From: Naegleria gruberi
Lineage: Eukaryota
Assembly: GCA_000004985.1 (NCBI GenBank)
Contig: GG739618.1
Direction: 5' to 3' (one strand)
DNA: 1,013 nucleotides
In this document: positions 1-1,013 of the stretch, piece by piece
Numbering within the stretch: the first letter of the stretch is position 1
Layout of the letters: each line of letters begins with the position of its first letter
Made by a program: the position numbers and the translations under genes
Notes under the pieces: generated by a model
Database searches by the model: none
What the model saw: only the letters and a program-made list of their open reading frames with translations
What the model was told of the DNA's origin: nothing

Positions 1-43
1 GTGAAAACGTAGCTACGCGATACATTCATTGATTATGCAATTA

Positions 44-77
44 CGGAACCGTCTGAATCGCAGCCGTTCGGGAGTTG
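44..77 (+). repeat. 34-bp direct repeat, copy A (CGGAACCGTCTGAATCGCAGCCGTTCGGGAGTTG)
   Basis: Read directly. It matches 342-375 at 33 of 34 positions; the only difference is C49 versus T347. It contains the GGAACC, CTGAATCGCA and GTTCGGG sub-motifs. The flanks on both sides are unrelated. Confidence 0.9.
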
Positions 78-152
78 GGTACCTCAAAAAATTGATATTA
101 TTATATATCATTGTATAGTCAAATAACTATTATATCAAAAATGGCTAGAACC

Positions 153-169
153 CAGCCGTTCAAAAGTTG
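153..169 (+). repeat. Degenerate partial copy of the 3' half of the 34-bp repeat (CAGCCGTTC-AAA-AGTTG versus CAGCCGTTC-GGG-AGTTG)
   Basis: CAGCCGTTC at 153-161 and AGTTG at 165-169 keep the same spacing as 61-69 and 73-77 in copy A. The central GGG is replaced by AAA. About 14 of 19 positions match. Confidence 0.4.
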
Positions 170-180
170 ACAATGATTTT

Positions 181-212
181 TATGAATATATATCTATCTA
201 TTATCTATATAA
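181..212. repeat. TA/TATC-rich, low-complexity, microsatellite-like tract (TATGAATATATATCTATCTATTATCTATATAA)
   Basis: Read directly. There are imperfect TATC, TATCTA and TA repeats. A similar AT-only stretch lies at 97-140. Confidence 0.6.
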
Positions 213-252
213 CCTTTTGTAAAGATTTTATTTTATAGAAATTGATTTTTGA

Positions 253-279
253 GCATGTTTCAAAAACCCAAAAACATGC
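253..279. other. Hairpin-capable inverted repeat: GCATGTTT (253-260) and AAACATGC (272-279), perfect 8-bp stem, 11-nt loop
   Basis: The arms are exact reverse complements. The loop is CAAAAACCCAA. Function is unknown; an 8-bp stem in AT-rich DNA is only marginally above chance. Confidence 0.5.
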
Positions 280-341
280 ACTTCGGGTCTCTGACTTCAT
301 GGTTGTCTATTTTCGGAACTGTTGAGAAGTAGTTCGTACAT

Positions 342-375
342 CGGAATCGTCTGAATCGCAGCCGTTCGGGAGTTG
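342..375 (+). repeat. 34-bp direct repeat, copy B (CGGAATCGTCTGAATCGCAGCCGTTCGGGAGTTG)
   Basis: Read directly. It lies 298 bp downstream of copy A and is 33/34 identical to it. Its left half (348-360) is also the left arm of an inverted repeat whose right arm is 393-405. Confidence 0.9.
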
Positions 376-405
376 TCATTTACTTCGTAACTTGCGATTC
401 AGGCG
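348..405. repeat. Imperfect inverted repeat and potential stem-loop: arms CGTCTGAATCGCA (348-360) and TGCGATTCAGGCG (393-405), 32-nt spacer
   Basis: The reverse complement of 393-405 is CGCCTGAATCGCA, which matches 348-360 at 12 of 13 positions. The arms 351-360 and 393-402 are a perfect 10-bp match. So the CTGAATCGCA core occurs in both orientations within 60 bp. Confidence 0.75.
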
Positions 406-538
406 AAAATAAATATCAAAATATGACACAACAGGGGTATTCATTTTTCACGACTTTTTTAGGGTGACTTATGGACCTGTTGTGTCATATAAACAATTTC
501 GTATTTTTTTTAGGAGGCCTGGAAAAAATTTTGGAACC

Positions 539-561
539 AAAAAAAAAGAAAAAAAGAAAAA
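539..561 (+). repeat. A-rich tract A9-G-A7-G-A5
   Basis: Read directly. It produces the KKKKKRK run in the 471..692 ORF. Confidence 0.9.
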
Positions 562-670: not shown

Positions 671-719
671 TATTTACAATAAACTGGATTAAGAGAATCC
701 TCTGAATCGAAAGTCGGGG
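671..719 (+). repeat. Diverged direct repeat, copy C (…AAACTGGATTAAGAGAATCCTCTGAATCGAAAGTCGGGG)
   Basis: An ungapped alignment to 891-939 gives about 37 of 49 matches. The 681-719 versus 901-939 portion matches at 30 of 39. It shares an AACTGGATTAA block, a GAATC/GGATC element, the CTGAATCGAAAG core (compare CTGAATCGCAAG) and GTCGGGG (compare GTTCGGG in copies A and B). Confidence 0.6.
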
Positions 720-890: not shown

Positions 891-939
891 TAATTGTAAT
901 GAACTGGATTAACAGGATCGTTTAAATCGCAAGTCGCGA
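891..939 (+). repeat. Diverged direct repeat, copy D (…GAACTGGATTAACAGGATCGTTTAAATCGCAAGTCGCGA)
   Basis: It lies 220 bp downstream of copy C and is about 76% identical to it without gaps. It contains AATCGCAAGT, which is identical to the reverse complement of 389-398. It ends in a GCGATCGC palindrome at 938-945. Confidence 0.6.
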
Positions 940-1013
940 TCGCCGATTTTTGTTCCTTTCATCAAACAAAGAAAATGTATAGTCGGTTTACTATATAATA
1001 TCCTTTATGAAGT

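Follow-up and report, generated by a model that had tools for sequence, protein, structure and literature searches.

Short repeated control elements are common in the rDNA spacers of most eukaryotes, so a 34-bp repeat in such a spacer is otherwise an ordinary kind of feature. In Tetrahymena, whose rDNA is extrachromosomal, type I repeats of about 33-34 bp are distributed over the spacer upstream of the rRNA promoter, and their function in origin firing and fork pausing has been shown experimentally. Pol I enhancer and spacer-promoter repeats (the 60/81-bp repeats of Xenopus, the 240-bp repeats of Drosophila, and those of Acanthamoeba) form regular tandem arrays that often copy part of the gene promoter. 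Sites of the Reb1/TTF-I type (T0, the Reb1 site, Xenopus T3) lie about 150-250 bp ahead of the transcription start, and their motif is present a second time shortly past the 28S gene.

The closest described molecule is the circular extrachromosomal rDNA element (CERE) of Naegleria gruberi EGB (GenBank MG699123), whose spacer contains seven repeat families of "34 bp to 371 bp" and is 31% repeats (PMC5805870). The spacer holds a single replication origin (PMC13315211). Which sequences direct replication, origin licensing, and rRNA transcription on the Naegleria rDNA circle is stated to be unknown, and poor spacer conservation is stated to hamper the comparative search for control sequences (PMC13315211, PMC13398248). 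In N. fowleri, expression from a vector with a fragment reported to include the N. gruberi origin was only transient (PMC12845041).

The window considered here, a stretch of 1,013 nucleotides, is non-coding, non-ribosomal spacer (NRS) of an N. gruberi-type CERE. It has full-length homologues, at 96.9-99.5% identity, on metagenomic contigs that carry eukaryotic SSU, 5.8S, and LSU rRNA; the 99.5% match is to an environmental contig with ORFs that group with N. gruberi EGB proteins. The spacer ORFs of the matching contigs cluster with N. gruberi AUH25139, AUH25140, and BAF74738, and the His-Cys box endonucleases that these contigs encode resemble Naegleria proteins. One contig, L005, is a complete circle of 13,799 bp with ends that overlap by 127 bp. 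The GC contents of a related complete circle (40.7/36.4/46.6%) are close to those published for the N. gruberi EGB CERE (40.8/36.7/46.5%; PMC5805870). The window lies ~1.3-2.3 kb upstream of the 18S gene, with its strand antisense to rRNA transcription. It contains only short spurious ORFs and no transposase-like ORF, and an exact look-up of two of its ORFs gave no record. A tRNA/tmRNA search of the window found none, an Rfam scan by E-value gave only chance-level matches, and phage and plasmid BLAST, a viral contig scan, and two prokaryotic genome scans gave nothing relevant. Lineages compared below are A (the window type, including L003, L005, and L025), B (L001 and L002), C, D (N. andersoni-type, L009), and E-G. 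Features of the window are given in Table 1.

Table 1. The 34-mer, its relatives, and associated features in the 1,013-nt window
Feature	Position	Strand	Remarks
M1, full composite copy	44..77	+	Box L core CTGAATCGCA at 53-62; Box R CAGCCGTTCGGGAGTTG at 61-77; promoter-proximal full copy, antisense to the rRNA genes
M2, full composite copy	342..375	+	Box L at 351-360; Box R at 359-375; one substitution relative to M1
Partial copy, Box R only, "type 2" variant	136..169	+	CCCAGCCGTTCAAAAGTTG at 151-169; repeat and motif match
Solitary inverted Box L	393..402	-	CTGAATCGCA on the minus strand; repeat and motif search
Box-L-only family member within the 47-nt repeat D2	683..716	+	CTGAATCGAA at 702-711; CTGAATCGCA in close relatives
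Second D2 copy, degenerate Box L	903..936	+	TTAAATCGCA at 922-931; exact GAATCGTCTGAATCGCA in L003/L005
AT-rich interval separating M1 and M2	78..341	.	22-32% GC; contains the partial copy and a (TATC)n run at 187-208
Right-hand part of the 371-bp unit	1..265	.	Unit begins ~106 nt before the window; contains M1 and the partial copy
36-nt block	497..532	.	TTTCGTATTTTTTTTAGGAGGCCTGGAAAAAATTTT; 33/36 kept in lineage B

An earlier note on this DNA had described a 34-bp direct repeat with copies 298 bp apart and one substitution, and the repeat search bears this out: M1 and M2 are 34-nt direct copies, 97% identical, with starts 298 nt apart and a single difference (C49 versus T347). Their recurrence is non-random; the 28-mer CGTCTGAATCGCAGCCGTTCGGGAGTTG occurs exactly at 50-77 and 348-375, and none of 200 dinucleotide-preserving shuffles gave even one match. 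The same note was right that the sequence immediately outside each 34-mer is unrelated, that the intervening DNA is AT-rich with a TATC run, and that a partial third copy is present, since CAGCCGTTCNNNAGTTG is found at 61-77, 153-169, and 359-375 where none is expected; this partial copy begins 92 nt after M1. Family members that it did not list are an exact inverted Box L (393-402), a Box L with one mismatch (702-711), and a degenerate one (922-931). Substitutions specific to the window cluster in the second D2 copy (903-936). The inverted Box L and the Box L of M2 together form a 14-nt inverted repeat (347-360 / 393-406) with 93% complementarity, and the DNA fold of 336-412 has a z-score of -3.95.

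The 371-bp unit to which M1 and the partial copy belong is tandemly duplicated in L005, where self-BLAST returns 371 nt at 98.7% identity and also a 34-nt repeat at 97.1%. L003 and L025 show a single unit, possibly because of repeat collapse in short-read assembly. M2 is invariant across three close haplotypes, in which the difference between M1 and M2 is stable as well.

The 34-mer (59% GC) has a composite architecture, in which Box L (CTGAATCGCA) is fused to Box R (CAGCCGTTC-RRR-AGTTG). Each box is also found alone. Short boxes of this family populate the upstream spacer as GC-rich islands amid DNA of 22-32% GC, and among them the 34-mer is the two-box form that is best preserved. Both boxes are over-represented, 10- to several-hundred-fold, in the spacers of three to four lineages: CAGCCGTTC occurs 5, 3, 2, and 4 times in the spacers of lineages A-D versus 0.01-0.03 times in shuffles, and Box L occurs 9, 12, and 4 times in A-C versus about 0.3 expected. 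Box L is the commonest GC-containing 10-mer of the A and B spacers. Its orientation is biased (21/25 copies alike), a bias that may be a product of spread within larger duplicated units. Arrangement of the full copies varies among relatives; they are direct at all A-lineage loci, with a spacing of 298 or 373 bp, and the two full copies of lineages B and C are inverted, ~1.0 or ~1.7 kb apart. A fixed pairing at about 300 bp is not supported.

Position relative to the rRNA genes is more regular for the promoter-proximal full copy, which lies 1.17-1.41 kb upstream of 18S in lineages A, B, and C (M1 is 1,364-1,397 nt upstream in L025) and 430-510 nt upstream of the block TCGAGTTCATCGACCCCCC, which is conserved at the boundary between AT-rich and GC-rich DNA. 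If the transcription start corresponds to the aligned site of the initiator-like element of lineage D, M1 would be ~170-270 nt upstream of it, distances to the "promoter" here relying on inferred landmarks.

A 27-29-mer of the motif is identical in lineages A and B, and these are the longest exact words that the two spacers have in common when the last ~260 nt of the 5' ETS are set aside. At M1 lineage B matches the 27-28-mer exactly and lineage C matches exactly a 21-mer common to A/B and C (CTGAATCGCAGCCGTTCGGGA), both at the equivalent proximal site, 1.17-1.23 kb upstream of 18S. The region can be treated as colinear between A and B because it is anchored by the 36-nt block, at a similar distance from M1 in both (447 versus 471 nt). 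In this alignment 42 of 47 motif columns are identical versus 253 of 484 columns elsewhere (Fisher p = 3e-7), the flanking spacer being ~52% identical. M1 and the partial copy have the same 92-nt spacing in both lineages, and TGCGATTCAG, at the site of the inverted Box L, is kept at the aligned position in B. Lineage A and the N. andersoni-type lineage D have 16- and 20-mers in common. The 20-mer, from the partial copy (read on the other strand, AACTTTTGAACGGCTGGGTT), recurs unchanged in the N. andersoni-type circle L009, and a 40-nt match around it is the sole alignment between the two spacers above the last ~220 nt; blastn otherwise aligns few stretches of the lineage spacers. The comparison favours selection on a composite protein-binding site, one of two origins that the earlier note had offered for the repeat.

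The conservation is not uniform. M2 has no clear counterpart at the colinear position of lineage B, and six further bases (CGGAAY) common to M1 and M2 are not conserved there. The other origin proposed earlier, recent duplication or gene conversion, probably contributes to the pattern, as the CGGAAY bases of the A copies and the colinear gap at M2 suggest. The boxes were not found in the more distant Naegleria-type circles E, F, and G, of which F and G extend no more than 2.3 and 1.4 kb upstream; an equivalent motif was sought in these three circles and none was found, and an initiator-like element, TATAGGGG, is present there instead. The rRNAs of A, B, and C are 99-100% identical over the probes, so these lineages are close relatives, and a short identical tract could spread between their circles by recombination or gene conversion without selection.

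Identity of the core in lineages whose spacers have diverged indicates that the 34-mer is probably a protein-binding control site. That it is specifically a selected protein-docking element of a promoter/origin control region has, from comparison of sequences, about an even chance of being correct. The element would be double-stranded DNA on which one or two sequence-specific spacer-binding proteins dock. Purifying selection would keep the boxes amid an AT-rich spacer that changes around them through duplications, inversions, and substitutions, and the bound factors would act on the adjacent control region. The preferred mechanism is an upstream Pol I promoter element, which may be an enhancer, an upstream control element, or a promoter-proximal barrier of the Reb1/TTF-I type; a possible second role is that of an auxiliary element of the single replication origin mapped somewhere in the spacer. 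We infer protein binding, and any effect on transcription or replication, from the pattern of copies and their conservation. Action at the DNA rather than the RNA level is indicated by the occurrence of both orientations, the unremarkable fold of the 34-mer, and the lack of Rfam, tRNA, or ORF signals in the window. The repeat-rich nature of the spacer (PMC5805870) counts against a docking site. So do the lack of a colinear counterpart of M2 in lineage B and the absence of the boxes from E-G.

Alternatively, the boxes may bind initiator or auxiliary proteins of the single CERE origin, with the AT-rich intervals serving as unwinding regions; this is possible, if tentative. The idea likens the repeat to type I elements of ~33 bp, which in the Tetrahymena rDNA minichromosome lie in duplicated domains of the 5' spacer. 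A single origin has been mapped to a 2.1-kb spacer fragment of the N. gruberi CERE (PMC13315211), and a 636-bp piece serves as an "origin" in vectors (PMC12845041). The setting of the boxes would also suit an origin: they are GC-rich within AT-rich DNA, M1 and the partial copy lie inside a tandemly duplicated unit, the inverted Box L pair is able to form a 14-bp stem, and the core is kept between lineages as the spacer diverges. However, other spacer stretches are as AT-rich, the repeat has no sequence similarity to any known replicator, and the yeast-type ARS consensus is absent from the window, L005, and lineages A-D, with one copy elsewhere in L025. Most eukaryotic origins, to our knowledge, are not sequence-defined, which also counts against this explanation. 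It is doubtful that the two-box 34-mer itself acts on the Naegleria rDNA circle as a sequence-specific replicator or as the site where an initiator binds. If true, this would add to budding yeast and Tetrahymena a further eukaryote with a sequence-defined origin, would account for how the circle maintains itself autonomously at ~4000 copies, and could be put to use in stable episomal vectors for Naegleria.

The 34-mer could instead be a neutral repeat, formed by recent duplication and short-tract gene conversion in a fast-evolving, repeat-rich spacer and having no function of its own, though this is unlikely. The EGB spacer is rich in repeats across the same range of lengths, 34 to 371 bp, at 31% of its sequence (PMC5805870), and spacing, orientation, and copy number all differ among lineages; the extra bases of the A copies and the missing counterpart of M2 in lineage B fit neutrality too. 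However, concerted evolution homogenizes copies within a lineage and does not keep 21-29 bases identical between lineages whose flanks are ~52% identical. Neutrality also sits poorly with the identity of the partial-copy 20-mer in the N. andersoni-type circle, where little else upstream aligns, with the 92-nt spacing kept in A and B, and with the one M1/M2 difference that is stable in three haplotypes.

An element acting in RNA is improbable. The proximal copy would in this case lie at the extreme 5' end of the pre-rRNA, or within a spacer transcript, as a processing or regulatory RNA motif or as an initiator-proximal part of the core promoter. Read in the rRNA sense, M1 is directly preceded by a T-run and GAGGTACC in lineage A or TTTAGGGGGT in lineage B, and these flanks look like a candidate initiator of lineages D-G, CAYTATARGGGT, which occurs there at the AT-to-GC boundary or within spacer repeats. 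The T-run flank is absent from lineage C and from M2, so that the T-run with GGGG or GGTACC is only a low-probability candidate for the start site. Full copies occur in both orientations, significant structure is lacking, and the ~500 nt between M1 and the GC-rich ETS are AT-rich and poorly conserved. A structured RNA gene or known RNA family is unlikely, with only chance-level Rfam matches, no tRNA, and a fold z-score of +0.5 to +0.6 for the single-stranded 34-mer; by the same score a hairpin within the 34-mer is not significant.

Still less probable is a site-specific recombinase target, comparable to the 34-bp FRT site of the yeast 2-micron plasmid, that would drive amplification by inversion or resolve multimers of the ~4000-copy circle. 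Element length, the high-copy nuclear circle as carrier (PMC5805870), the inverted full copies of B and C, and a dyad in the A-lineage copy (GAACCGTCTG-AATCG-CAGCCGTTC) all invite the comparison. The dyad is imperfect, however, with a left arm that lineage B does not conserve, and the fold z-score of the 34-mer is not significant. No inversion isomers are seen, since two independent B haplotypes (L001 and L002, 94% identical) are fully colinear, and the circle lacks a tyrosine or serine recombinase gene and carries only His-Cys box endonuclease-like ORFs. An FRT-like site was rejected on these grounds.

Least credible of all is an origin as terminal inverted repeats of a small DNA transposon or MITE, or as fragments of an interspersed repeat, an idea that the inverted pairs of B and C invite and that is largely refuted by the direct copies of the window and of all A-lineage loci, by a proximal copy that is orthologous and stands alone in A, by the lack of any transposase-like ORF, by a search for a target-site duplication around the inverted pair of B that found none (the repeat itself, as noted earlier, is not one either), and by the absence of dispersed copies from the collections searched. 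Among 241 million metagenome records a 23-mer of the repeat is found on three contigs only, all three of them rDNA circles; outside rDNA circles it has no match in metagenome, viral, prokaryotic, phage, or plasmid collections. The interspersed repeat of thousands of copies that the earlier note had set against its own proposal is therefore not what was found.

The 21-29-bp core, present in several lineages at a regular upstream position, provides a concrete candidate control element, and a true origin or promoter element would aid the building of Naegleria episomal vectors. Novelty of the 34-mer itself is modest because the EGB announcement already lists NRS repeats of "34 bp to 371 bp", of which the 34-mer is probably the smallest. 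The announcement counts repeats and prints no sequence, assigns them no function, and makes no comparison between species; the match is made here through length, ORFs, and GC content. The molecule is of the same type, and the self-BLAST repeats of L005 are exactly 371 bp and 34 bp, the published extremes. This analysis adds the two-box architecture, the conservation seen in other lineages, and the regularities of position.

Comparison with other systems yields partial likenesses. Bacterial-type plasmid iterons do not fit, with spacings of 92-373 bp versus a period of ~20 bp, no rep gene, a eukaryotic context, and no plasmid or phage matches. Shared with FRT and loxP are a length of 34 bp, a high-copy nuclear circle as carrier, and, in some lineages, inverted copies, but the repeat is without conserved 13-bp inverted arms around an asymmetric core, a recombinase gene, or inversion isomers. 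Reb1/TTF-I-type sites are likewise short and fixed in orientation, bind protein sequence-specifically, and are found a few hundred bp before the point where Pol I starts, a likeness that is only a candidate one here; the invariant core GAACGG of the 34-mer contains the AACGG of Myb-type sites, which is a lead only. Downstream of the LSU gene the likeness ends: neither box occurs within the first ~3 kb past the LSU end in A-C, where a different repeat (CTCGACTTGGAAATTTTT) is found instead, the first Box L follows at 3.0-3.5 kb and Box R at a distance of at least 4.7 kb, and the sole exception is a sense copy of Box R 1.3 kb after the LSU in lineage D.

Like Pol I enhancers and spacer-promoter repeats, the 34-mer exists as several copies of a short conserved core located upstream of the gene promoter, it varies in copy number through unequal exchange (the 371-bp unit), and some of its copies are compatible with function in either orientation. 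The difference is that the copies here are dispersed at irregular spacing (92, 206, 298, and 373 bp, and ~1-1.7 kb) and have no demonstrable similarity to a defined promoter. The type I repeats of Tetrahymena have no sequence relationship to the 34-mer and are A+T-rich, compared with 59% GC; Naegleria rDNA is a monomeric circle rather than a linear palindrome. In organization the two are nevertheless alike. Both are elements of ~33-34 bp dispersed upstream of the rRNA promoter of extrachromosomal rDNA, both lie among AT-rich DNA inside a tandemly duplicated unit of a few hundred bp, and the interspecies conservation that marks type I repeats despite drift of the spacer is found for the Naegleria 34-mer as well.

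The earlier note's claim of a 34-nt direct repeat, CGGAACCGTCTGAATCGCAGCCGTTCGGGAGTTG, at 44-77 (M1) and 342-375 (M2) is confirmed at its coordinates by repeat search, and the match is far beyond chance. The two full copies lie 298 bp apart, differ by one substitution (C49 to T347), and have a 28-mer in common exactly; no match to it arose in 200 dinucleotide-preserving shuffles. A partial third copy, also claimed, is borne out: CAGCCGTTCNNNAGTTG occurs three times in the window (61-77, 153-169, and 359-375), with none expected, and the 34-mer aligns a third time at 136-169 (65%). The interval between the full copies is AT-rich as described (22-32% GC, with a short (TATC)n run), and the window overall is AT-rich and non-coding, with no convincing ORF, tRNA, or Rfam family. 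Comparison of all copies divides the 34-mer into two separable parts, Box L and Box R, which also occur singly (see table). Box L of M2 and the inverted solitary Box L pair up as an inverted repeat of 14 nt whose DNA fold is significant (z = -3.95); the 34-mer by itself has no notable fold (z = +0.5 to +0.6).

A 23-mer scan of metagenome contigs returned three contigs only, of which L003 matches the entire window at 96.9%. These contigs carry eukaryotic SSU, 5.8S, and LSU rRNA (Rfam) and, within the SSU gene, a GIR1 branching ribozyme beside a His-Cys box homing-endonuclease ORF (PF05551), the combination that makes up the twin-ribozyme intron known from Naegleria; named relatives of the endonuclease are from N. 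italica, N. philippinensis, N. gruberi, and N. andersoni. Further circles were obtained by protein-guided look-ups. L005 closes into a full circle of 13,799 bp (127-bp end overlap) with one rDNA cistron, 97.8% identical to the window. L025 is 99.5% identical, and two of its spacer ORFs cluster at at least 90% with N. gruberi EGB and NEG-M proteins (AUH25139, AUH25140, and BAF74738). The window is non-coding spacer of a Naegleria circular extrachromosomal rDNA element (CERE), a nucleolar plasmid of ~14 kb with ~4000 copies per cell (PMC5805870, PMC7714845). The rRNA genes lie on the minus strand of the window; in L025, window positions 2 and 1013 are 1,321 and 2,333 nt upstream of the 18S 5' end, and the 65-69% GC block between window and 18S gene is presumably the 5' ETS.

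The SSU intron is present in L003 and absent from L005 and L025 despite nearly identical spacers, whereas L003 and L001 have intron endonucleases 99% identical and spacers that are largely unalignable; this mismatch suggests that introns may be mobile or circles may recombine. Just downstream of 28S, a second PF05551 ORF is intact and conserved in other circles at 99%, 81% (N. gruberi EGB AUH25140), and 58%; it was described as a likely pseudogene in EGB (PMC5805870), but stays open across lineages.

Seven repeat families of 34 bp to 371 bp, with no function assigned, are described in the non-ribosomal spacer (NRS) of the N. gruberi EGB element (PMC5805870). Self-comparison of L005 gives a 371-nt tandem repeat (98.7%) and a 34-nt repeat (97.1%), and GC contents agree with the published values; these agreements make it very probable that the window 34-mer is the shortest of the published EGB repeats. 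The 371-bp unit, which contains M1 and the partial copy, begins ~106 nt ahead of the window and ends at position 265. L005 has this unit twice, hence three full 34-mers, and L003 and L025 have it once each (L005:12159-13660 compared with L025:865-2367), a difference among close haplotypes that is either real copy-number polymorphism or collapse in short-read metagenome assembly. The molecule is already known and its 34-bp repeat had been counted; new here are the two-box architecture, cross-lineage conservation, and positional pattern.

Spacers of seven circle lineages were compared in rRNA orientation: A (L005, N. gruberi-like, including the window), B (L001/L002), C (L017), D (L009, which encodes the N. 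andersoni endonuclease exactly), E (L013), F (L018), and G (L022). Among A, B, and C, rRNA probes are 99-100% identical, and little of the spacers aligns in blastn apart from the motif, the 3' ETS, and the ~1 kb immediately upstream of 18S. With the final ~260 nt of the 5' ETS set aside, the longest exact A/B spacer words are 27-29-mers of the motif, TCCCGAACGGCTGCGATTCAG (21 nt) is exact in A/B and C, and AACTCCCGAACGGCTG (16 nt) is common to A and D. The latter two also have AACTTTTGAACGGCTGGGTT (20 nt), from the partial copy, in common. When window 30-560 is aligned colinearly with lineage B, 42/47 motif columns are identical, against 253/484 of the others (Fisher p = 3e-7). CAGCCGTTC occurs 5, 3, 2, and 4 times in spacers A-D (0.01-0.03 in shuffles), nearly always 1.2-3 kb upstream of 18S. 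Box L, at one mismatch or fewer, occurs 9, 12, and 4 times in A-C (~0.3 expected), with 21/25 copies in one orientation, and ranks first among the GC-containing 10-mers of A and B. The spacers of E, F, and G contain neither box, F and G being covered for 2.3 and 1.4 kb upstream.

The proximal full copy lies 1,404 (A), 1,223 (B), or 1,193 nt (C) upstream of 18S, and 430-510 nt upstream of a TCGAGTTCATCGACCCCCC... block that A-D keep where AT-rich spacer turns GC-rich; the spacing from M1 to the partial copy is 92 nt in both A and B. The second full copy differs between lineages in place and in orientation, and a fixed pairing at ~300 bp is not supported: in A it is direct, at +298 (with a further copy at +373 if the unit is doubled), but it is inverted at ~+1.0 kb in B and ~+1.7 kb in C. 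Nothing in lineage B clearly corresponds to M2 at the colinear site. Because the flank TAGAAGAT is common to both, the inverted copies of B and C are orthologous to each other.

Boxes and neighboring elements (L numbers, metagenomic contigs or circles)
Feature	Sequence	Location	Remarks
Box L	CTGAATCGCA	window 53-62 and 351-360	comparison of copies
Box R	CAGCCGTTC + RRR + AGTTG	window 61-77 and 359-375	comparison of copies
Solitary Box R	variant AAAAGTTG	window 153-169	in partial copy
Solitary Box L		window 393-402	inverted
Solitary Box L		window 702-711	one mismatch; exact in L003/L005
Solitary Box L		window 922-931	degenerate; exact in L003/L005
Perfect 15-bp inverted repeat	ATATGACACAACAGG / CCTGTTGTGTCATAT	window 421-490	40-nt loop; DNA fold z = -5.6
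Candidate spacer element	TTTCGTATTTTTTTTAGGAGGCCTGGAAAAAATTTT	window 497-532	33/36 kept in lineage B, at similar distance from M1
PF05551 ORF downstream of 28S		L003:6341-7408 (-); L005:7861-8916 (+)	351-355 aa, His-Cys box
Repeat downstream of 28S	CTCGACTTG(G/T)(A/C)(A/C)ATTTTT	L005:9024-9160; L001:567-1120; L017:13220-13351; L009:883-1496	rRNA-sense
~60-nt boundary block	ATCTAC..TCGAGTTCATCGACCCCCC..GTCTGA..GTTCCTAACCTTGCGGAC	L005:571-640; equivalents in L001, L017, L009	in L005, 892 nt upstream of 18S
Initiator-like element	CAYTATARGGGT	upstream of 18S: L018, 582 nt; L022, 532 nt; L013, five copies, 934-2197 nt; L009, 1224 nt	always rRNA-sense

Other features of the spacers are recorded here in their own right. 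The stems of the 421-490 inverted repeat are invariant, both substitutions among close haplotypes falling in the loop; related arms occur in the L005 spacer at 9484 and 11404, and the repeat is not kept in lineage B. Window 916-941, inside the second copy of a 47-nt repeat (D2), has eight substitutions in 26 nt relative to L003/L005, with its Box L degraded, whereas divergence elsewhere in the window is only ~2%; the cluster looks like a patch of local conversion or relaxed constraint. The CTCGACTTG repeat, separate from the 34-mer family, lies downstream of 28S in A-D, 0.17-2.3 kb after the LSU 3' end, and is a candidate array of Pol I terminators; in A and B it forms tandem arrays with a period of 118-119 bp; the primer CTCGACTTTGAAATTTTG of an N. 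australiensis paper suggests a repeat of this type there too. The ~60-nt block is kept in A-D exactly where 25-30% GC spacer gives way to 65-69% GC, and is a candidate promoter, 5' ETS start, or first processing site.

The cores of the 34-mer are constant while their flanks have diverged or been replaced, and the proximal module keeps its positional regularities, which indicates that purifying selection is likely to act on a DNA element. Of the two origins that the earlier note had offered, selection thus gains support from constancy across lineages, and duplication or gene conversion alone does not; conversion probably explains why the A-lineage copies share 34, not 28, bases. Since both orientations occur, without structure or RNA-family signal, the data point to a candidate double-stranded protein-binding site. 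Enhancers, spacer promoters, promoter-proximal barriers, and other Pol I upstream elements usually lie in the upstream rDNA spacer, as does the replication origin in extrachromosomal rDNAs. We give about an even chance to the proposal that the 34-mer would be a selected docking element for one or two proteins in the upstream control region; within this proposal, we rate action as a Pol I upstream element or barrier somewhat above a role in the origin alone.

That the 34-mer is instead a replication-origin determinant is possible but unlikely; published work places a single origin in an NRS fragment of 2.1 kb (PMC13315211), and a piece of 636 bp is used as origin in vectors (PMC12845041). A neutral repeat is more doubtful: in its favor the second full copy varies in place, but against it the cores persist across A-D. 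A leader or core-promoter/RNA reading fits poorly with the mixed orientation and is improbable. A recombinase target is very improbable, as two B haplotypes of 94% identity are colinear and show no inversion; against an FRT-like site, the dyad, itself imperfect, is not kept in B, and the circle carries no recombinase gene. Least probable is a transposon or MITE: copies are direct in the window, the inverted B pair has no target-site duplication, and there is no transposase. The interspersed-repeat scenario is likewise not borne out in the collections searched: among metagenome contigs the 23-mer lies on rDNA circles only, and searches of phage, plasmid, viral-contig, and prokaryote-genome collections found nothing.

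Read as a protein-docking element, the 34-mer would belong among rDNA spacer control repeats, of moderate and niche interest, and offers a testable candidate in a spacer whose poor conservation has been described as an obstacle to finding such elements by comparison. Published reports describe the promoter, terminator, and origin sequences of the Naegleria circle as not yet defined (PMC13315211, PMC13398248). The initiator-like CAYTATARGGGT occurs once in F and G, at the AT-to-GC boundary, and in E as five repeats in 588-bp units, like spacer promoters; no equivalent was found in lineages A-C. This element resembles TATA(G/A)GGG, the Pol I start consensus of plants and some protists. A Reb1/TTF-I-type terminator was rejected for the 34-mer, neither of whose boxes lies in the first ~3 kb after the LSU in A-C: in Reb1/TTF-I systems the same motif is expected after 28S, whereas here a different conserved repeat, CTCGACTTGGAAATTTTT, occupies that place.
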